A DNA stretch of 24,985 nt, taken from IMG/VR virus record IMGVR_UViG_3300033069_001204, positions 64,001 through 88,985 of that record. One strand, given 5' to 3'. Positions 12,014-24,985 of this stretch are shown piece by piece (positions within the stretch are counted from its first letter, which is position 1; every line of letters begins with the position of its first letter). This DNA comes from a virus. Lineage: Duplodnaviria > Heunggongvirae > Uroviricota > Caudoviricetes. The translations under genes were made by a program, and so were the position numbers. The notes beneath the pieces are model-generated. The model searched no databases and was not told the DNA's origin. It worked only from the letters and a program-made list of their open reading frames with translations.

Positions 12014-13318
12014 TCAGTTCTCTTTGTCGTATGCTTCCCGGCAGTCATCGTAGATCTTGCATCTCTCGCATGACTTCTTCTTGCCGACGTCCTTTCCGAA
12101 ACGATATCCGCTCGGACACTCAGCGCTCAGAGAGGAGTCCTCGTCGTCATCCGAAGAGGGCTTCTTCCTTTTGACTGGCGGATCGTCGTCATCGTCATCC
12201 CTGGACAGAGGCTTCTTCTTTTTGGGAGGCTCGTCCTCGTCGTCATCGGAGGCCTTTTTCAGCTTCCTTTTGATTGGAGGAGCGTCCTCGTCGTCCTCGT
12301 CTACGAGCTTTTTCTTCTTGGGAGGATCATCATCGTCGTCGAGGACTTTCTTTTTCTTAGGGACCTCATCCTCGTCGTCCTCTGAAACCGTCTTTCTCTT
12401 TTTTGGAGGGACCTCATCCTCGTCGTCTTCGAGGACTTTCTTTTTCTTAGGGACCTCATCCTCGTCGTCTTCATCTACGGGCCTTTTCTTCTTGGGAGGT
12501 TCGTCTTCATCATCGTCGAGGACTTTCTTCTTTTTGGGAGGTTCGTCCTCGTCGTCTTCGTCTACCTCCTTTTTGACCTTCTTCGGAGCCTTATCCGAAG
12601 CATCCTCATCCTCATCGACATCCGCGCCCATCAGCATGGCGCGCAGAGTGTCATAGGAATGGATGATGAGAATGGAGTCGAGGTCGCACGCATCCGCCAA
12701 ATCGGCCTTCGTCACGGGTTCCTCTCTGCTGACGAAATCGATGCGATTGGTGGAGTAGTAGACGTTCTTCTTGTAGGTCTCTTCGGAGAATCGGATGGTC
12801 AGGGATGAGCCGGTCTTGACCTCGGCGAAGTCCGCCAGGGAATCATCGCCTTCATGGATCTCCTGGTCGAGCCACTTCTGGAAGAGGTGATGGCTGACGT
12901 CCCAAATGAACTTGTTGCCTTCCCTGTCCTTTACGTTGTAGAGATACCTGAGCTTGGGGCGAATGCTTTCGGCATCCTCAGCTTCGGCATCCGGGTCCTT
13001 CTTGAGTCTGGCGAACTCTTCGCAGATGGGACACTTCTTGCCTATGGTCTTGGGGCATACCACTATGGCATCGTCCGGACCGACGGCGCGGTGGACCTTG
13101 AATCCCCTGCGATACCAGTCGCTTCCTGCCGGGACATCGTCCAGATTGGGCTCCTGGGTGACCTTGTATGGAATGAAATCCAGAGTGGCCTTCTTCTTTT
13201 TCGGATCGACCTGGAAAAGCTCAACTCCTGTGGGAAGCTTCAGATACCCCACGTCCCTGGAGCCCGAGCTTTCCGCCTTGCTCTTGATGCGATCCCGCAT
13301 CGACATCTTCTCTGCCAT
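12014..13318 (-). CDS. ssb: gp32-like single-stranded DNA-binding protein with a long charge-block repeat tail and a C-terminal four-Cys domain
   Basis: HRAVG...VVCPKTIGKKCPICE zinc-type motif, RYLYNV, position between uvsY-like and recA-like genes, RBS AAGGAG, tail ending CPSG...CERC...C. Confidence 0.75.
   Translation of the reverse strand: MAEKMSMRDRIKSKAESSGSRDVGYLKLPTGVELFQVDPKKKKATLDFIPYKVTQEPNLDDVPAGSDWYRRGFKVHRAVGPDDAIVVCPKTIGKKCPICEEFARLKKDPDAEAEDAESIRPKLRYLYNVKDREGNKFIWDVSHHLFQKWLDQEIHEGDDSLADFAEVKTGSSLTIRFSEETYKKNVYYSTNRIDFVSREEPVTKADLADACDLDSILIIHSYDTLRAMLMGADVDEDEDASDKAPKKVKKEVDEDDEDEPPKKKKVLDDDEDEPPKKKRPVDEDDEDEVPKKKKVLEDDEDEVPPKKRKTVSEDDEDEVPKKKKVLDDDDDPPKKKKLVDEDDEDAPPIKRKLKKASDDDEDEPPKKKKPLSRDDDDDDPPVKRKKPSSDDDEDSSLSAECPSGYRFGKDVGKKKSCERCKIYDDCREAYDKEN
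12130..12620 (-). repeat. About 10 imperfect coding repeats of (acidic run)-(P/V)P-(Lys/Arg run)
   Basis: Protein units such as DEDDEDEPPKKKK. A ~40-bp perfect direct repeat occurs at 12340-12379 and 12430-12469 (90-bp spacing). Confidence 0.92.
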
Positions 13319-15305: not shown

Positions 15306-17747
15306 CTACTCCTTCTTCTTCCAGGTTTCTGTTTCAAAGTCCCATTCTTTCTTCTTGACCCATGGCTCATCCGGACGCGCCACTTCGAAGTCGATGTCCA
15401 AAGGAATGATAATCCAGGGCCATATACTGGAAAGCTCATGCCCTATTCTCCGGACCTTCCTCGTTATTGGAATGAGCTCGTCGGGATGAATCTCCATTAT
15501 CATGGAGTCATGGATCTGACCAATAATCAAGGACTTCATGCCTTTGCGATCCAGCCATTCCTGGGTTATAAGGGCCGTCTTCAGGAGGCAGTGGAATGCG
15601 GCTCCCTGAACCACATAATTTATCACGTCATTCCTGGACATCAAGCCACTGCATCTGAAGCCAGTAAACATGTCGGCATATCCATTCTTGCAATAGGCCG
15701 CATAATGCCGATCCTTCCAATCGGAATACTGCGTATACTTCTCGAACCAAAACTTATGCTCGACCTTCTTGATGTGGTTTTCGAACTTGGCATACGTTCC
15801 GAGGCCCACTGACTTCAAATGGGCTCTCAGAGGAATTCCGCTAGCCGTCTTGAGGCCCATGAGATCTATGGACTCCCACAATGCCTTGGCGCAGTTGACG
15901 TAGTAATCCCCATAGCATTGCGGAAATACGAACTTGTTCTTTCCGCAATAGCGAATCCTCTTTTCCATCTCCTCCAATGGAAGACAGTAGCAGTCCATGG
16001 CGGAGTCCCGGTGCATGTCCCCCTCAAGGACATCAGAGATCCAGACCGGGTCCTTGTGGTAGCAAGCGCCGACCCGGACCTCCAGGCCTGAAAAGTCGAA
16101 CTCACCGAGCATCCAACCCTTATGCCTTGGAATGATTCCACTACGGATGCACCTTGCCTGCTCCTCATCCCTAATAGGCATGTTTTGGAAGTTCGGCTTT
16201 TGGGAAGAATTATGCACGCATATCTCATTGGCTATGAAATTATGGGTGTCCTCAACCTCAATGTCGTAGACATCTACTTTCATCTTGAGAGTTTCGATGT
16301 GGTCAATGATATGATTGTCCACCGTAACAGAACCTGGAAAGCATAGTCCAGTCTGATTAGACTGGATCCGATCATATGAGATGCCATAAGAACTCATCAG
16401 ATTCTGTAAACGGTAGAATCCAAACCGCATAAAGGACATCGTTTCCGATAATCCTATCCGCTTCAATGATCGAACCAGCCATCCTTTTGACCAGTATCTA
16501 CCATCCATTCCATAGCGCATAGATGCCTTTTTCAGATCCACGTCATTTTCAGAAGCATATTTTTTGAAGGTGGTGAAATCCATCTCCACAGAACTGGCTT
16601 TGCCACGCGCTTTTGATAGGAGACGTAGACATCTGAACTTGCTTAATCCAAGATATTCGGGATGATCCTTTCCTTTTCTTGGGTGCATTCTGCCTTCTGC
16701 AAAAGCTCTCTTTATGCCTTCAATATTCTTCTGACGAATATGAAAATCATTGAAGTGGCAGTGATGCTTGCTGTGATTCGATTTCGACATGACTTTGAGA
16801 TTATCAGGTGAGTTGTTGTAATGATTGCCATCCAGATGATGGACGACCATTCCATCAGGAATCTGCTCTCCTAATTCAGATGCTATGAATCTGTGCTCTA
16901 TGACGGTCTTTCCTGTGAAGGCTATCCTATCTCGGAACCTTCGACCGGATAAGACGCGTCTTTTAGGTTGCCTATGGTCAGTCCTGGCCACCTCCAGATT
17001 CATCAGATTCCGCGCTTCGCAGTATGTCCCATCGACAGTTCTAATTAGATGCTCTGGAGTCACATCCAAGTAGCCATATCTTCCAGGGCCGCCTTTCCAA
17101 TGGACTCGGATGATCTCACGATGCCCGGTCATTCCAGACCATTTGACCTTTTTTATTCTGGGCTGAAGGCTGTCGTCGTATGAATAAACCAGATCCCCTT
17201 TTCGAATATCTTCAATATTCTTGTCTCCGCATGGGGTCATTATGCGCGATCCTTTAGCGACACATGACCTAAAAGTAACGGGCACATTCAAACCGAACAT
17301 AGGATGGATGTAGCCATCCACCTCCTCTCTCAGAATGCTTCGGATGTAGGTGGAATAGACCTTTCCCATTTTCCGATACTGCATGAGAATCTTTGCGAAT
17401 GGCATATCCATCTTTTCCAGAATGGTCTTGTCCACAGAGCCCAGACCTTTGGCGGTCATCTTGTCCCCGACCCATCCCAGATGGTCATATATCACCACCC
17501 TGAGCTGATCATTGGAGTCCATATTGAAGGCGTCTTTGAACTTCTTCTTCCACCAACGACCTTCATCGGTCTCAAGGAATTTAGCCTCGATCTCCTCCAA
17601 CGTCCTGGCGATATTGGTCTTCTCTATGGCATAATGCTCAGGGCTTATCTTGATGCCGTTGCGGTGCATTCTAGCGAGCAGGAGGGAGCCGGCATGGAAA
17701 AGGGAATAGGCCTCTGGCATATCTATCTTTGGCTTAATGGACGGCAT
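15306..17747 (-). CDS. polA: Family A DNA polymerase, polymerase domain only, interrupted by an intein
   Basis: Motif A DFSGLEVR, motif B GKNKFVFPQCYG, motif C QIHDS. RBS AAGGAG 7 nt before ATG. 461 aa after intein removal. Confidence 0.95.
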   Translation of the reverse strand: MPSIKPKIDMPEAYSLFHAGSLLLARMHRNGIKISPEHYAIEKTNIARTLEEIEAKFLETDEGRWWKKKFKDAFNMDSNDQLRVVIYDHLGWVGDKMTAKGLGSVDKTILEKMDMPFAKILMQYRKMGKVYSTYIRSILREEVDGYIHPMFGLNVPVTFRSCVAKGSRIMTPCGDKNIEDIRKGDLVYSYDDSLQPRIKKVKWSGMTGHREIIRVHWKGGPGRYGYLDVTPEHLIRTVDGTYCEARNLMNLEVARTDHRQPKRRVLSGRRFRDRIAFTGKTVIEHRFIASELGEQIPDGMVVHHLDGNHYNNSPDNLKVMSKSNHSKHHCHFNDFHIRQKNIEGIKRAFAEGRMHPRKGKDHPEYLGLSKFRCLRLLSKARGKASSVEMDFTTFKKYASENDVDLKKASMRYGMDGRYWSKGWLVRSLKRIGLSETMSFMRFGFYRLQNLMSSYGISYDRIQSNQTGLCFPGSVTVDNHIIDHIETLKMKVDVYDIEVEDTHNFIANEICVHNSSQKPNFQNMPIRDEEQARCIRSGIIPRHKGWMLGEFDFSGLEVRVGACYHKDPVWISDVLEGDMHRDSAMDCYCLPLEEMEKRIRYCGKNKFVFPQCYGDYYVNCAKALWESIDLMGLKTASGIPLRAHLKSVGLGTYAKFENHIKKVEHKFWFEKYTQYSDWKDRHYAAYCKNGYADMFTGFRCSGLMSRNDVINYVVQGAAFHCLLKTALITQEWLDRKGMKSLIIGQIHDSMIMEIHPDELIPITRKVRRIGHELSSIWPWIIIPLDIDFEVARPDEPWVKKKEWDFETETWKKKE
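16209..17264 (-). mobile_element. Intein (352 aa) with an HNH-type homing endonuclease
   Basis: Begins CVAKGSRIMT (Cys1), block B VTPEH, ends VYDIEVEDTHNFIANEICVHN followed by Ser+1. Internal VHHLDGNHYNNSPDNL...H. Removal restores TFRS-SSQKPNFQN. Visibly more AT-rich than the flanks. Confidence 0.95.
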
Positions 17748-18942
17748 GCACGTGCTCCTTCTGATTCAAAGCGAGCCAGAATGTGAATAGCGAATCCTGG
17801 GCATTGTATTTATACATGAGCCTTTTGGGGGCGCTGAACACCTTGTTGAAATCATTGGAGTTCCTGCCCTTCAGATAATGCTCGACGTCCTTGGAGTAAT
17901 CCGGGATTCCAAAATTGACATACGTCTGGAATTTCAGATTGGAGCTTGACGATCTATTGTCCATAATATGGGCCGCCAGGACAGTATCCAGGTTCCAGTT
18001 TTCAACCTGGGTCTTCAGAATCTCAATGGACCAGGTATCTTCGAAAGCCATATTGGCGGCATACTTCTCCGCTTGGCTGGAAAGGAATCTCTTGAGATAG
18101 GGCGTGGTCGTCTCATTGGGCATGAAGCTGAATGAGTGGTTCCACTTGTCGCAGATGGAGGCATAGGCTATGGCATGGCCCTGACGTTGGGGCTTGAGAG
18201 CAGTGGTCTCATAGTCGAACGCAGCCACAGGGGCTTTACATGCCGCACGAATCCTATCAATCACATCATCATCCTTCAGGTCATATTCCAAATAGGAATC
18301 CACCTGTTCCATGATTTTTGGAAACCGCATCGCGAGATGGTCCAAAGCATGGCTGAGATCCGTATGGAATATCTTCTCTACGGCATCCTCCTGATTGCGA
18401 TGCCTATTGATGAAGCTGGGATGGAATGTGGGACAGAGCCAGCAGCCGAGCCTCTGGTCTGGAATTCCCCAACCTCTCCATAGAGTAATTCCTCCTCCAT
18501 CATCCTCCACCGACAAGCCGCCAAGCAGACATTCCATTGCCGTGGAACCCAGCGCTATGACTATTTTCGGTTTGAATGCTTCAATCTCCTGCATCACCAT
18601 GGGCCTGCAGCACGATACCTGCATTGGAGTGGGGGTCTCATTCCCAGGGGGCCGACAATTGACCGCATTCATCTTGCGACAGTCGCGATCCAGATCGATG
18701 TCCAGCGACTCTAGATGGCTGCGCAGAAGCTGTCCGGCCTGTCCTATGAGCTGCTTCCCTCTGGCATCCTCCTGCTCCCCTGGAGCCTCAGCTAGAATGA
18801 AGATGCCTTTCTCCCCCTTCCCAGTAGCGGGCATTTTGGGGGAGAGGCACTTCCGATATAGGCCGCACTTCTCACAGGACGTCTTGGAACGTGAGAGCGG
18901 AGTCTTTATCTGTTGGCTATTCAGGAAAAGAGGCATGGTCAC
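17734..18942 (-). CDS. Family 4 uracil-DNA glycosylase fused to a Pol A-type 3'-5' proofreading exonuclease (N-terminal part of the split polymerase)
   Basis: CEKCGL, EAPGEQED, NAVNCRP, CC and FHPS (UDG-4 with Fe-S cysteines), then FDYETT (ExoI), NMAFED (ExoII), YNAQDS (ExoIII). Confidence 0.92.
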   Translation of the reverse strand: MTMPLFLNSQQIKTPLSRSKTSCEKCGLYRKCLSPKMPATGKGEKGIFILAEAPGEQEDARGKQLIGQAGQLLRSHLESLDIDLDRDCRKMNAVNCRPPGNETPTPMQVSCCRPMVMQEIEAFKPKIVIALGSTAMECLLGGLSVEDDGGGITLWRGWGIPDQRLGCWLCPTFHPSFINRHRNQEDAVEKIFHTDLSHALDHLAMRFPKIMEQVDSYLEYDLKDDDVIDRIRAACKAPVAAFDYETTALKPQRQGHAIAYASICDKWNHSFSFMPNETTTPYLKRFLSSQAEKYAANMAFEDTWSIEILKTQVENWNLDTVLAAHIMDNRSSSSNLKFQTYVNFGIPDYSKDVEHYLKGRNSNDFNKVFSAPKRLMYKYNAQDSLFTFWLALNQKEHVHAVH

Positions 18943-20018
18943 TCACCATCCTCTTTGGACTCCTTCGCAGCCTTCTTGCGGCTCTTTGGCTTTTCGACGA
19001 CTTCTGGAGAGGCCATGCTCACTATGTGGATGAAGTCAGCCCCTTCCATCTTGATCTTTCCACAGATGTCATCGGGATCTCCTATGATGACCTCGTTCAG
19101 GAGCTCCAGCATATCCATCAGGAATTCCGGATGGACCTGGAAGCTGATCGGTTTTCCGGAGTATTCTATCTTGGCCTGCTCCCTGCACCAGCCCTCCTCT
19201 CCACGGCCCTCTACGGATATCATGCCCTCCTCAATGAGCATTGTGATCTTCTCATCCTGAATGAACTCCGATGCCGAGAAGATTCTCGCCCGCTCAATCA
19301 TCGTCTTGAGCCTCTTGGGAATCGTGATGGAAGTCCCCTCGACCTTCACAATCTCCGAGAGATCGGGATACTTCGCGGAGTAGTTATGGCAGGAATAGAT
19401 GACGTTCTCTTTGGTCTTGAAGTGAATCCATCCTTTGGATAGACCATAGGACGTTATCTCAAACTTCGCAAGATTCGGGACGGTGGCGGCCGGGATGAGA
19501 ATCGGGTCCGGCATCTTGGAGGAGAGCTTGTAGCGCGTCATTCTATTATCGTCAGCGGATTCCGCATAGGAGCCTTTGACATTGATGCAGGTGAGAATCT
19601 GCTGGGTCATGTCGGAGGAGGCCGAGAATGAGCAGAAGTCCAGAGCCTTGATGAGATTCTCAGGGACTGGATGCCACTTCTCAGGCTCTCCGATCTCAGA
19701 GATGTCCAGACGGATTTTCGGGTCCACCGGGATGCCCGCCGAACTTCTGCCTCCTGAGATCATCAACTCCGAGTCGTCAAGCTCCAAAGTCAGGGTCTCG
19801 GACTTGCTCTTTGTCACATAGGATATCAGCTTCTCGGCCGGGACGGCGGCCTTGAAGTCCGACTTGAATGGATAGCTCACCGAGATCTCGTCATTGTATG
19901 TCCGAATTCTCCCATCCTTTATGATGAAAGATGTGGACTGCGGCATGATCTCCTTAGCGGCGAGCCCTGGCTTTACCGCCAATAGAGTTTGAAGAAACTT
20001 CTCTCTGTTCACTTCCAT
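18939..20018 (-). CDS. dnaN: DNA polymerase sliding clamp, beta-type
   Basis: Size and three-domain pattern of beta clamps: L..VKPGL..KEI, TYNDEI, A..D..RM.RY, YPDL, F.VHPEFL.D.L. Adjacent to the polymerase genes. Confidence 0.8.
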   Translation of the reverse strand: MEVNREKFLQTLLAVKPGLAAKEIMPQSTSFIIKDGRIRTYNDEISVSYPFKSDFKAAVPAEKLISYVTKSKSETLTLELDDSELMISGGRSSAGIPVDPKIRLDISEIGEPEKWHPVPENLIKALDFCSFSASSDMTQQILTCINVKGSYAESADDNRMTRYKLSSKMPDPILIPAATVPNLAKFEITSYGLSKGWIHFKTKENVIYSCHNYSAKYPDLSEIVKVEGTSITIPKRLKTMIERARIFSASEFIQDEKITMLIEEGMISVEGRGEEGWCREQAKIEYSGKPISFQVHPEFLMDMLELLNEVIIGDPDDICGKIKMEGADFIHIVSMASPEVVEKPKSRKKAAKESKEDGE

Positions 20019-20166
20019 TGATGTCTCCTTTGATCTTGTGAAATATTTCAGTTGTCTGGAATTGGTTCGTGGATATGTGATGATAGGAAAGAAGTCTATG
20101 CTTTACGGGCAGGACCTTTTCCTTTCCTTCCGTCCTTGGAGCCACGGAGGCCAGGTATATTATCAT
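19954..20166 (-). CDS. Mini-protein resembling the N-terminal module of the TGT/DpdA-like protein
   Basis: MIIYLA-17 aa-RLLSYHH, purine-rich RBS-like AAGGGG upstream. Overlaps the clamp start by 65 nt. Confidence 0.6.
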   Translation of the reverse strand: MIIYLASVAPRTEGKEKVLPVKHRLLSYHHISTNQFQTTEIFHKIKGDINGSEQREVSSNSIGGKARARR

Positions 20167-20314
20167 CTATCGTCCCCTTTTTTACGTAGATATCCATTTT
20201 GTCCCCATGCTCTCTTGAATGCCAGAAGCTCGTCAATCGGCTTCGGCATTCCCCAGCAGTCAAAGCATTGCCCTGAGTGGCATCGAATATCCATGTCGCC
20301 AGATATATCTTCAC
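20096..20314 (-). CDS. Mini-protein resembling the N-terminal module of the TGT/DpdA-like protein
   Basis: GTG start directly after the upstream TGA with GGAGG RBS. MKIYLA-19 aa-RLTSFWH. Confidence 0.65.
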   Translation of the reverse strand: MKIYLATWIFDATQGNALTAGECRSRLTSFWHSREHGDKMDIYVKKGTIDDNIPGLRGSKDGRKGKGPARKA

Positions 20315-20896
20315 TCAATCCTCCATGTCTGAAAGAGCTTTGCATAGGGATGGGTGGGACCCTAACAAAGTCCGGGAACCCTCGATGGGAATCCAAGTCA
20401 GGTACTTTCCTGAGATCTTGCAGTTCATCCTATTGGCATTTCCGGAATCTTCGGACATCCAGAAACACCGCTCTATTGTGGTCCTCATCATCTTGGGAAT
20501 CCAGGCCACTTTAAAAGGAGCGACGTAGGATGTTGGTATTCCTTTCTTGTCGCAGTCAGTGACGAATAGGACCCATCTATTCTGGAAGAATTCAAAGGTA
20601 TCCCTCACCTCATGGCAACCAGATGGAGCCTTCATATAGAGCGGGTCATAGTTGAAACGGATCTCCATCTCAAATAGGCCATGGGGATTCTTCACTCTTC
20701 TGGTGAATCCTACATCCGTTTTTCTTGAGATGGCAGAATTATCCCAGTTCCCTTCCTCCACATCCTCCATCATCGGATAGCAAAGCAGATACAGCCCTTT
20801 GGATATCGAGTCCTTGTTTATAAAGGCATCCAAGGCTTCCCGGCGCTTCTGAGCCTTCATCAGGTCTTCGTGAATCTTGCCACCCCTCGTCATCAT
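20315..20896 (-). CDS. Hypothetical protein
   Basis: 193-aa ORF filling the gap on the coding strand. No recognised motif. Confidence 0.65.
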   Translation of the reverse strand: MMTRGGKIHEDLMKAQKRREALDAFINKDSISKGLYLLCYPMMEDVEEGNWDNSAISRKTDVGFTRRVKNPHGLFEMEIRFNYDPLYMKAPSGCHEVRDTFEFFQNRWVLFVTDCDKKGIPTSYVAPFKVAWIPKMMRTTIERCFWMSEDSGNANRMNCKISGKYLTWIPIEGSRTLLGSHPSLCKALSDMED

Positions 20897-20969: not shown

Positions 20970-22016
20970 CTAGCTCCTCAACAGTCCGAATCCCGATATG
21001 CCCCTAATTCTAAATCTCCAGGGCCACTCAGGAATTCCTTTTTCGAGCTTCATAAAGAAGCGGACATTGAACTCATCCCTTTGGCGATACTCATTGCTGA
21101 GTCCGGGCTGCTCAACCACCTCGACCTCACGTTTCCCGCCCTTCGGCTTTCCGGACCACCGCTCGCCGTCCTTCAGTTCATAGGTCTCCTTCTCCTTCCT
21201 GAAGACAGAGGAGCCCAATTCAAATCCCATCTCATGGACATACTCCAGCAGGATGTTCCTCTGGGCTTTGGGAAGGGTGGTGATATGAGCTCCGGCATCT
21301 CCCTTCGTGGGAGACTGGCTGGATACACATACCTTCCACACATTCTCATCGTAGGCCCAGGAACTCCCCCTCTTTTTCGGGACATAGATGCTTCCCATTC
21401 TGGAGGTCATGACCCATGAAGTGGAGTCTGTGGAGAACCATGGATAGCGAAGCAGAAGAGGGATGGAGGTCAGGCCAAAGCCATGGATCTTCCACTGGGG
21501 CCAGCCATCCTTATCGCAGATATACTTCGAAAACAAATGATCCAGCCACTTCGTCAAAGGGGCGTTGGCTATTGGGACCATTCCTCCGAATGCGATATAC
21601 TTGTGCTCTTTCAGGTATGTCTTGAGATACTTCTCATCGTCGCCATAGTGGAAGCAAGGCAGTGGAGACAGGCCAGCCTTCTCCATAATCCTCTGATTTT
21701 TCAGAGTCCCCTCGGCACTGCCGATTACGTCCAAATTGGCATACACCGAGATAATGCTTTTATGCTCTTTGATGAAGGCGATGTATTCCTGAATATCGAT
21801 CTCAGCCTTCATGGTGAAGGCAGAGAATGCTCCGCTGTCCAGGAATAGATCGACTTTTCGATCCACTGTCTTTAGTTTGTCTTTCAAGTCCTTAATCCCT
21901 CTCAGGTAGTGATATGCCCATAGCCGATGCTTCCATACACGATTGAGTTCAGTCTCTCTTTTTTTGCAGGGTCCCACTGCTCCGCCACCAGCGGCTCCGG
22001 CAAAGAATAGATTCAT
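20970..22016 (-). CDS. dpdA: tRNA-guanine transglycosylase-like protein (DpdA-type DNA base-exchange enzyme candidate)
   Basis: LFLDSGAFS, YANLDVIG, PCFHYG, IAFGGMV, IHGFG, YPWFSTDSTSW, and position beside folE/queC/queE. Subfamily and DNA versus RNA substrate cannot be fixed from sequence alone. Confidence 0.8.
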   Translation of the reverse strand: MNLFFAGAAGGGAVGPCKKRETELNRVWKHRLWAYHYLRGIKDLKDKLKTVDRKVDLFLDSGAFSAFTMKAEIDIQEYIAFIKEHKSIISVYANLDVIGSAEGTLKNQRIMEKAGLSPLPCFHYGDDEKYLKTYLKEHKYIAFGGMVPIANAPLTKWLDHLFSKYICDKDGWPQWKIHGFGLTSIPLLLRYPWFSTDSTSWVMTSRMGSIYVPKKRGSSWAYDENVWKVCVSSQSPTKGDAGAHITTLPKAQRNILLEYVHEMGFELGSSVFRKEKETYELKDGERWSGKPKGGKREVEVVEQPGLSNEYRQRDEFNVRFFMKLEKGIPEWPWRFRIRGISGFGLLRS

Positions 22017-22414
22017 AGGACAAGGAGATCTCTTTTGGCCAACAAAGTGAGATGATCTATGACCTCCTCTACAGAATCATATTCTATCCCGGCGGAGATG
22101 ATCCATGGATGCCTGGCCAGATTGGAGTCCGGGACTATGATTAGATTCTCTTTGCCGAAGAAGCTGGACAGAGCCAGCTCTCCAAGAGTCCCAGGGGAGG
22201 CTTTCCAAATATTGAACACCACCACATCGCTCCTCATGATGTGGGCGGTGTCGATATCCACTATCTCATTTGGCGGAGTGTTGGAGGCGTCGATTTTTCT
22301 GGGATCGAAATACTCGAACCAAGGACATGCCTGGATGATTTGGTCCCTCCAACCATTCACCTCGACCTCAGAGCATCCGCACATTGGACCGCTGAGATAG
22401 ATTCTTCTTTTCAT
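22013..22414 (-). CDS. Nucleoside 2-deoxyribosyltransferase / nucleotide N-glycosidase-like protein
   Basis: IYLSGP, FDP, D...IMRSDVVV, SPGTLGEL. Start placed at ATG 22414 (GAGGT upstream); GTG 22426 is the alternative. Confidence 0.75.
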   Translation of the reverse strand: MKRRIYLSGPMCGCSEVEVNGWRDQIIQACPWFEYFDPRKIDASNTPPNEIVDIDTAHIMRSDVVVFNIWKASPGTLGELALSSFFGKENLIIVPDSNLARHPWIISAGIEYDSVEEVIDHLTLLAKRDLLVL

Positions 22415-22422
22415 GGCGGACC

Positions 22423-23355
22423 TCACTTGATCAATGCCATGAATTCGGCCCTGGTCTCAGGCTTGTCCCTAAACGCGCCTTTCATGCTGGAGGTGACCAT
22501 GACAGAATTCTGCTTCTCGACTCCGCGCATCCTCATGCAAAGATGCTGGGCCTCTATCACGCAGGCCGCTCCTTTGGCTCCGAGATGAGTCATCAAAGCC
22601 TCCGTGACTTGATCCCCTATTCTTTCCTGGATCTGCAGCCTCCGGGAAAAGATCTCCATGAGACGAACGAGCTTCGAGACTCCCACAACTTTTCCATTGG
22701 GAATATAGCCTATGTGGCATTTCCCTATGAATGGGAGCATGTGATGCTCGCATGTCGAGTAGAGCTCGATGTCCTTCACCAAAACCATCTCATCACAGGC
22801 TCCCTCGGTGAATGTCTTGAGGGTGGCTTTGATGTCCGCCTCCTTGAAGGCGTATCCTGAATAGAGCTCCTTGAAGGATTTCAGGACGCGGTGAGGAGTC
22901 TCCTTGAGGCCTTCGCGATTGGGATCATCTCCAATGACCTCCAGAATGCGACAGACGGCATCCTCAGCCGGAGCCTCTCCAGCCTCCCACCAGAACTCCA
23001 CCCAGACGTCAGGGGACACAGTCATTGCGACCCGTGGAAAATCCACACCCATGGGAAATGACATGGTCCGATCTTTTCCAACTAGGGCATAGAACGGATA
23101 TCCAGAATACCTCAATCTGGTCTCTCCTGAATCGACAATGTCGTCGACAATGACCACATCGCCATCCGAGTCCTCAAGATTGGAGATCAGCGGAACTCCG
23201 ATTCGATGGCTGATCTCCTGCGCCACTGGGATTCCCCCTCTAGGAACTCCATATATGGCACTGACAGCAGGATGCTCGCTGCGAATCAGATCAGGCAGCA
23301 GTGTACATAACTGCTTGAATGTATCCACGTCAATCTTGCAAATGGAGGCGGTCAT
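22423..23355 (-). CDS. folE: Type I phosphoribosyltransferase domain fused to GTP cyclohydrolase I
   Basis: N-terminal [19 protein letters not shown] and WVEFWWE (Gpt-like). C-terminal [43 protein letters not shown]. Confidence 0.93.
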
Positions 23356-24068
23356 TACTTCTGCCCGCCTTCCCAGATTGAGAAATACTGCTTGGTATCC
23401 TCATAGGATATGACGTCATGCGCCTTATTGGAGGAGAAGGCGAGAATTCTCTCCTGGCAAGCGCCGCATTTTCCGCATGCCAGAGGCTGGTCCTTGTAGC
23501 ACGTCCGCGTCAGGTTATATGGAGTGCCATGCTCCAATCCATACTTGGCGATGCCGCCCTTGTCGGTCTTCAGGAATGGGGCCAGAATCTCCACGCGGCC
23601 TCCAGTCCCCAAATAGATGGCGGAGTCCATGGCCTTGAAGAACTCAGTCCGGCAGTCCTCGTAAATGGCGTGATCCCCCTGATGGATTCCAAGGGCAATA
23701 TACTGCGCCTCTATGGACCATGCGTATCCCGCAGCCATGGAGAGGAAGATCATATTGCGGCCAGGGACGACGGTCCTTGACATTGTGGCATCCTGATAAT
23801 GCCCTTCGGGGATATCCCCTCCGGATCTCAGAAGATCCGATTTGAAATCGCGCATGGCTCTGGAGATGTCGATCTCCTTGAGGTCGTGGAGAAGTTCATT
23901 GGAGCTATGGATGTCGACGAGCTTCCTCGTCATCTCAAGCTCGTATGGATTGTGCTTGCTCCCATACTGGAATTGGATTGGATGGACATCATAGCCATTT
24001 TCGAGAAGCCAGGTCAGGACTGTGGCGCTGTCCATCCCGCCGGAAAGTGAAAGAACTGCTGAAGGCAT
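23355..24068 (-). CDS. queC: 7-cyano-7-deazaguanine (preQ0) synthase
   Basis: [29 protein letters not shown]...CGKCGAC. Confidence 0.95.
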
Positions 24069-24150: not shown

Positions 24151-24801
24151 TTAGGCTATTCTGTAGTGATCCTTGGAAGGCTTCATGATCTCGACGCCCT
24201 TCTCCTTCTGGAGGCGGCCGCCAAGCTGGGCGGAGACGGTTCCGAGCAGAGACTTCTCCTCACGTTCCGGGAACTCCTCCTTGAGCTTCTTCGCGATCTC
24301 CACTTTGGTGAGGCCGATCTTGGGGGCCTTCTTGAGAATCGGGATTATGCTGTTGATGACGCCCGGACCCTTCGTCGGAGGGCCTTTCCTCTTGCCTTTG
24401 ACATCGGCCTTCTTTTCGGGCTTCGCGCCCTTCTTTGTCGGCTTCTCGGGTTCGGACTCCTCGTCCTCTTCCTTGGCCGCCTTCTTGTCTGCTGACTTCT
24501 TGTCCGCCTTCTTATCGGCCTTCTTGGACTTGAGCTCCTTGCGCTGGGCGGCATTCTCCATCTCCAGGGTCTCCATGACCTCCCATGTGGCGTCGCTCAG
24601 AGCCTCGTCGTCGGCCGGTATGGAGTTCTCAAGATCCTTGAAAGCCTCCTTGAGCTCGGTCTCATCCTCGATGTCTCCCAGGACGAGGCCTCCGAGATCA
24701 TAGTTCTGGTCGATCTCCTTGCCGGCTTTGACCATCTTCTGGAAGAGTTCGCTCTTCTCCGTCTTCCCGGCCTTCTCCTTCGCTGCTGTCTTCTTTGCCA
24801 T
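24151..24801 (-). CDS. Lys/Glu/Ala-rich protein with a probable C-terminal winged-helix-like DNA-binding domain
   Basis: Histone H1-like KKADKK tracts and C-terminal VINSIIPILK...LTKVEIAKKLKEEFPER...TVSAQL. RBS AAGGAG. Confidence 0.7.
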   Translation of the reverse strand: MAKKTAAKEKAGKTEKSELFQKMVKAGKEIDQNYDLGGLVLGDIEDETELKEAFKDLENSIPADDEALSDATWEVMETLEMENAAQRKELKSKKADKKADKKSADKKAAKEEDEESEPEKPTKKGAKPEKKADVKGKRKGPPTKGPGVINSIIPILKKAPKIGLTKVEIAKKLKEEFPEREEKSLLGTVSAQLGGRLQKEKGVEIMKPSKDHYRIA

Positions 24802-24826: not shown

Positions 24827-24985
24827 TTATTGTATTTTCAAAGTCTTATGAATTTGGACCGATAGACGCCATCCAGGATTGGATTTGACGTATTCCACGG
24901 CCGGCTTGAAGTCCTCAGAGCATGGCTGAATATATCTTTCCACGTCCACTTCGGTGAAGGACTCCCAGTAGTGATCGGCCCTATA
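24827..24985 (-). CDS. queE: 7-carboxy-7-deazaguanine synthase, 3' end only (gene starts outside window)
   Basis: Hand translation ...YIQPCSEDFKPAVEYVKSNPGWRLSVQIHKTLKIQ-stop matches the QueE C-terminal QP...WRLSxQxHK signature. Not in the ORF track. Confidence 0.88.
   Translation of the reverse strand, partial: YRADHYWESFTEVDVERYIQPCSEDFKPAVEYVKSNPGWRLSVQIHKTLKIQ

Follow-up and report, generated by a model that had tools for sequence, protein, structure and literature searches.

Free-standing N-terminal barrel modules beside a phage dpdA gene: putative interchangeable subunits of a split DpdA1

The dpdA locus and its two mini-genes

The window, which is the whole stretch of 24,985 nucleotides that was analysed, forms the last part of an 88,985-nt virus record (IMGVR_UViG_3300033069_001204). 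On the minus strand the genes run in the order queD, queE, a 216-aa ORF, queC, folE, a nucleoside deoxyribosyltransferase-like gene, dpdA, a 193-aa ORF, mini-genes A and B, and the clamp gene, after which come a UDG-like/exonuclease gene and a polymerase gene (Table 1). The record is classed as linear and 69% complete; its two ends (window 24827-24985 and C1:1-about 460) form one intact, continuous queE frame, and the record is therefore probably a complete circle.

Table 1. Coordinates of features in the window; all lie on the minus strand.
Feature	Position	Strand	Remark
Sliding-clamp gene	18939-20018	-	next gene downstream of both mini-genes
Mini-gene B (type 'A.tAPG.E'), free module	19954-20166	-	ATG start, 70 aa
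Mini-gene B, conserved part (about aa 1-48)	20023-20166	-	tail shares 65 nt with the clamp gene
Mini-gene A (type 'ATW'), free β1-α1-β2-α2 module	20096-20314	-	GTG start, 72 aa
Mini-gene A, conserved part (about aa 1-48)	20171-20314	-	tail runs into mini-gene B
193-aa ORF, no family	20315-20896	-	between dpdA and mini-gene A
dpdA	20970-22016	-	parent gene, full-length with its own fused module
DpdA catalytic core (β3 to α8)	20970-21866	-	candidate internal starts GTG (V51) and TTG (L44)
Third module (type V), in-frame aa 1-48 of DpdA	21873-22016	-	a free L005 gene is its nearest relative
A7 then GAGAGA in the fused V module	21953-21965	-	at the position of the (AG)n tract of relatives
folE and queC	22423-24068	-	folE (22423-23355) has a phosphoribosyltransferase-like segment at its N-terminus; queE and queD lie across the record join

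Relatives of the 193-aa ORF occupy the same site, between dpdA and module A, in loci L003, L153, L086 and L130. DNA polymerase A is split over two ORFs (window 15306-18942), one UDG-like with a 3'-5' exonuclease and the other the polymerase, and the polymerase ORF contains an apparent intein with an HNH domain, as annotated in the relative L003. Two proteins are of low complexity and rich in Lys, Asp and Glu (window 12014-13318 and 24151-24801); in the former, DEDEPPKKK units repeat behind a probable single-strand-binding domain. Over the whole genome GTAC occurs at three sites, 4% of expected, GT/AC is depleted (0.63) and GA/TC is enriched (1.29). The scarcity of GTAC suggests avoidance of a host GTAC-cutting enzyme, one that the modification would fail to block.

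The parent gene is a DpdA1 gene by fold, residues and gene context. The predicted model of its product (pLDDT 86.9) has the (β/α)8 fold of the TGT type, and its best structural matches are arcTGT, TGT and 7UI4 (for 7UI4, Z 18.1 and rmsd 3.4 Å over 262 residues). The model consists of β1 at residues 2-6, a helix at 18-25, β2 at 30-34, helices to 48 and β3 at 56-60, and its residue 1 aligns to residue 40 of the Zymomonas mobilis TGT and to residue 4 of 7UI4; the module is therefore the first two β-α units of the barrel. The core carries D60, S61, D96, H123, F180 and D197, which are invariant, together with F64 and the nearly invariant G144-G145, and all the invariant catalytic and pocket residues lie C-terminal to the module. 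Their spacing equals that of D63, S64, D105, H132, G153-154, F189 and D206 in CAjan, a correspondence made by spacing and not by direct alignment. Phage DpdA1 enzymes (CAjan/Seuratvirus, 9g, iggy and BcepGomr gp31; PHROG 887) share this fold and spacing; as in the window, their genes are accompanied by preQ0 genes and precede the clamp gene. The preQ0 pathway genes folE, queD, queE and queC are all present near dpdA, and the predicted function of the enzyme is the insertion of 7-deazaguanine into DNA.

An earlier note, made from the sequence, had described mini-genes A and B as free-standing copies of the transglycosylase N-terminal module. Its coordinates for both ORFs are right, and the spacings within the shared motif pattern are, as it had stated, 19 aa in A, 17 aa in B and 24 aa in DpdA. 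The starts appear plausible, with GGAGG 5 nt before the GTG of A and GGGG 7 nt before the start of B. Neither ORF reaches the catalytic region: both stop before β3, and the DSG, LDV, HGF and DST motifs are absent. Judged by their sequence, the mini-genes are parts of an enzyme and not enzymes themselves. The note had called them the strand-helix-strand of the TIM barrel; they do represent its first portion, but the extent is β1-α1-β2-α2, that is, two β-α units of about 48 aa. Conservation is confined to about 48-50 aa; the tails beyond are read-through sequence that is not conserved, and their final 20 aa extend across the start of the next gene. A classical -1 slippery heptamer (A AAA AAG GGG, window 20176-20185) lies in the tail of A shortly before the start of B, where a -1 shift would terminate A at the ATGA overlap with B; the heptamer is not conserved in L002 or L003.

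Pairwise BLAST similarities are weak. A matches B with E 0.10, B matches DpdA over the KHRL stretch only (E 0.006), and A and DpdA give no match. Because pairwise similarity is marginal, a profile was built from fused DpdA relatives. This HMM, trained on 57 fused DpdA N-termini and on none of the mini-genes, scored B at 21.6 bits and A at 15.5 bits, and 0 of 2,000 shuffles of either mini-gene attained its score. Ranked over the 2,095 stop-to-stop frames of the genome, dpdA came first and the mini-genes second and third. The iterated profile finds just three modules in the genome (A, B and the fused V).

The MKIYLA start of mini-gene A made a nucleoside 2-deoxyribosyltransferase-like identity a candidate. 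It was rejected, since no Pfam or PHROG match to that domain was found for either mini-gene or for 65 A-type members, whereas the neighbouring gene (22013-22426) does match. Pfam, PHROGs, the ESM Atlas, a PDB sequence search and Rfam gave no module matches, an absence that is no proof of novelty. A word-based search with B alone as query found no match, and a search for long fusions of B yielded one 117-aa protein, which is weak evidence.

A family of modules in related phages

Using DpdA, 164 loci were fetched, and removal of near-duplicates left 117. These loci are related, and therefore counts and p-values drawn from them are not independent. The iterated profile gives about 560 module matches in the 164 loci, with at most one on the opposite strand, and most of the 117 loci hold two to five modules, both before and after dpdA. 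Type A is present in 74 of the 117 non-redundant loci and type B in 30, and the A-B order ahead of the clamp gene recurs in L002 and L003. Conserved short homologs are present: the A profile matches 369 clusters at 50% identity, and among the 150 listed nearly all are 41-117 aa long. Searches started from modules return to dpdA in 51 of 54 loci, which overlap with the training loci; this agrees with the expected linkage to dpdA.

Synonymous sites are saturated (pS about 0.8) whereas pN is 0.25-0.4, and this dN/dS-type comparison, also proposed earlier, indicates constraint at the amino-acid level. In the module tree, which is partly circular because subtype labels derive from N-terminal motifs, type A forms one clade (98/100) that includes the core-fused copy in L154 and is the most divergent module lineage; type V forms another clade across phages (98/95). 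The mini-genes are short, divergent and ragged at their C-terminal ends, as decayed remnants of dpdA duplications might be, an origin that the earlier note had kept as its alternative. However, length and motifs are conserved over dozens of phages, constraint acts on the protein, and the lineages are older than the phage genomes. A and B belong to two old lineages and are therefore not decayed copies; we regard a remnant origin as extremely improbable. Mini-genes A and B are almost certainly functional proteins, and their description as free-standing N-terminal barrel modules, linked to dpdA and conserved as proteins, stands.

In the three cultured DpdA1 phages that were examined the N-terminal module occurs once, fused, and never as a free copy, and free modules are likewise absent from the distant DpdA loci; the arrangement is therefore clade-specific. 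A tblastn search of A against annotated phage genomes, a test of low sensitivity, also found no free module. The window's clade thus differs from the cultured DpdA1 phages in that the first quarter of the barrel is multiplied, detachable and, in relatives, switchable.

Pattern matches in L184 and L193, which lack dpdA, were rejected as chance DNA matches. Tandem fusions of two modules, with or without a core, occur in P0059, P0121, P0123 and L015. A second, divergent DpdA/TGT-like gene of the DSG type, with a different N-terminus, is present in L075, L099, L158 and L159. In L003 (4674-6564) a 216-aa HNH-like ORF interrupts dpdA near its 3' end, possibly as an intron or endonuclease insertion, and the last 73 aa form a separate downstream ORF. 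Programmed +1 recoding that would join a module to the next gene was also rejected: the first eight junctions were all +1, but the larger set is mixed, with 58 ordinary -1 overlaps with a stop, 51 +1 run-ons and 7 in frame.

Headless cores, docking and repeat tracts

In 30 of the 117 loci the core is headless: an in-frame stop precedes it and it starts from a Met of its own. Free modules lie nearby in every one of the 30. When one headless core was modelled, its alignment to TGT began only at residue 94 and that to 7UI4 only at residue 87, as against 40 and 4 for the full protein, and in this model nothing fills the β1/β2 slot. A Met within 14 aa of the core is kept in 54 of 59 fused proteins (expected, 17.8), so many fusions may yield a free core too. 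The copy of A fused in L154 and the closeness of the window's fused V to the free L005 gene indicate that the fused and free states interconvert.

The complex of core residues 51-340 with module A was modelled, as the earlier note had suggested for an N-truncated enzyme. It scored 0.91 in three runs, whereas the best of three controls scored 0.00; the 0.91 mark is attained by 58 of 80 solved complexes and by 2 of 110 mismatched pairs. The runs share at least 96% of their contacts, and the partner pLDDT is at least 89. In the model A docks into the slot of this phage's core and the barrel is closed, with β2 of the module beside β3 of the core and β1 beside β8; the tightest contacts are between module residues 25-28 and core residues 56-59 and between module residues 3-5 and core residues 195-196. 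This comparison is usually passed by the two halves of a split gene whose fold has been solved, so the docking shows fit and not binding in the cell. The mini-genes very likely dock on the DpdA core, and they would probably plug into its headless form. The window's own dpdA has no internal ATG for a headless core, the two codons in Table 1 being the only candidates, and this DpdA is full-length, which makes the docking of A and B the weak point of the account in this phage.

The fused module of the window's enzyme makes extra modules unneeded for closing its barrel. This would suit a role in which some free modules, perhaps A or B here, are competitive inhibitors or sinks that lower modification, as would the divergence of the A lineage. 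Yet A is fused to a core in L154 and is the only intact module near the headless core of L021, and the headless core of L057 has only modules of types A, B and C, all downstream. Because these module sets stand beside headless cores, the purely inhibitory role considered in the earlier note (a dominant inhibitor) is disfavoured, and we judge that some modules act in this way to be improbable.

Many sister modules in related phages are out of frame. A motif scan found 270 modules, 49 of them out of frame, whereas among about 280 neighbouring genes only two were flagged, and these lie in a single locus. An (AG)n tract of at least 10 nt is present in 33 of the 49 out-of-frame modules and in 38 of the 221 intact ones, and several further out-of-frame modules break at poly-G. 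Tract density is 2.6 per kb in modules and 0.02 in flanking DNA, a difference of about 125-fold, and the codons for RER/ERE form a pure AG repeat in 67 of 83 cases in modules but in only 4 of 108 in long genes. The tracts sit inside the sister-module ORFs and are selected at the DNA (codon) level, and the core, clamp and queC genes of the same loci are almost never frameshifted. Assembly error was rejected as the main cause of the frame breaks, since such breaks hardly ever occur in neighbouring genes and selection acts on the tracts at the codon level.

Tract lengths differ between close relatives. L154 and L156 are 99.2% identical, and the tracts of their V modules are one AG unit apart in length, a difference that alters the frame. 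A contig of an independent digester study (run X3) matches L050 over 1,262 nt with 11 substitutions; the sole indels in this match are at two tracts, and a third, downstream tract also differs. The V module is out of frame in L050 but in frame, and fused, in the X3 contig. These differences come from assembled contigs of different samples and so show polymorphism, not a switching rate. The tract-bearing types are V, G, H and S. Type A is tract-less and in frame in 65 of 70 cases, type B is in frame in 26 of 28, and no repeat tract was found in the A and B of the window. The A7 run of the window's fused V module (Table 1) is one of only three homopolymer runs of at least 7 in the 89-kb genome, and A7-GAGAGA is a possible switch, perhaps weak or decayed.

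The fused position is taken by different module types in different phages, and direct repeats of 17-38 nt are common to module starts in AT-rich relatives. Both observations would fit silent cassettes that recombine in front of the core and act in cis after DNA rearrangement. Several others do not: modules have their own ribosome-binding-like sites, some headless cores lack any upstream module, A is almost never fused (2 of 77), frame switches in individual modules would have little point in silent copies, and no such direct repeats were found in the window. Silent cassettes are, in our judgement, quite improbable, a little more so than inhibitors.

Proposed role and relation to known systems

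DpdA chemically shields phage DNA. We consider it fairly likely that the mini-genes encode exchangeable subunits, each a quarter of the barrel, of a phage DpdA1 that is naturally split. In this account a core would need one module to become active and replace G by preQ0 in the phage's DNA, and each module type would set a different sequence context or level of modification. A and B would be always-on modules, and other types would be switched by slipped-strand changes in their (AG)n or poly-G tracts. Switching would leave the phage population with several modification patterns at once, as insurance against host restriction and other defences that sense DNA.

The two insertions of DpdA after β1 and β2 (β1/α1 and β2/α2; Ins1 and Ins2) lie on its DNA-binding surface and were proposed to serve DNA binding, the second perhaps aiding sequence recognition (PMC10164549). 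Both fall inside the module, and the loop after β1, the first loop of the module, distinguishes the module types. Since these variable loops line the DNA-binding face, we infer that modules may set the context that is modified. Phage DpdA1 enzymes are motif-specific, for GA and GGC in CAjan and for GA in iggy, and the CAjan paper (PMC7544227) names the choice of target motif by DpdA as an open question. No correlation was found between dinucleotide bias and module type after allowing for many tests, a comparison in which one Seuratvirus locus is itself GA-poor.

Modules might instead complete the barrel and leave the target unchanged, tuning activity, stability, timing, oligomer state or coupling to the replisome. 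Such subunits agree equally well with the docking and split-gene evidence, the module array sits right before the clamp gene, as replisome coupling would have it, and the β1-α1 region of bacterial TGT, which also serves dimer contacts, is a suitable precedent. Many long-lived divergent types side by side, switched singly, nevertheless exceed the needs of a single assembly role, and module divergence is concentrated in the loop after β1, on the substrate face; we hold this alternative to be rather unlikely. Of the 'swappable specificity modules' of the earlier note, swappability is the best reading, given the headless core and the docking model, while a change of specificity follows by inference only. 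That note's interpretation was partly supported; it had missed the core's own start and the repeat-switched sister modules.

Bacterial DpdA (Salmonella Montevideo, PDB 7UI4) and the TGTs of Z. mobilis and P. horikoshii are TIM-barrel transglycosylases like the DpdA of the window, but they are single-chain barrels, and a separately encoded β1-β2 part is undescribed in the literature examined. In phase-variable Type I and Type III restriction-modification systems (hsdS shuffling, SSR-switched mod) a shared catalytic part is combined with alternative or switchable specificity parts. The module system would resemble these by analogy, in having a common catalytic part and switchable parts, but it differs in chemistry and fold, it is phage-encoded, and the piece that is swapped belongs to the catalytic barrel itself. 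Since the modules all share one strand, they cannot be exchanged by inversion. Half- and quarter-barrel complementation of TIM barrels indicates that barrel fragments can associate, as is proposed for the modules; in the parts of that literature available to us the fragment pairs are laboratory fragments or splice variants and not natural arrays of alternative quarters. A literature search, to which most subscription papers were out of reach, found no split or phase-variable DpdA.

Gene callers often miss the mini-genes, as in L002 and L003, and headless cores would pass for truncated genes. A detachable part of 48 residues with many natural variants makes the motif choice of DpdA directly testable by mixing cores and modules. 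We put at about even the chance that these phages have combinatorial, phase-variable epigenomes, in which one core is served by separately encoded quarter-barrels, each with its own target motif and several of them switched by microsatellites. If true, alternative quarters would complete a natural TIM-barrel enzyme in trans, a phage DNA-modification system would show phase variation, and the modules would be a toolkit, supplied by nature, with which a DNA base-exchange enzyme could be reprogrammed.
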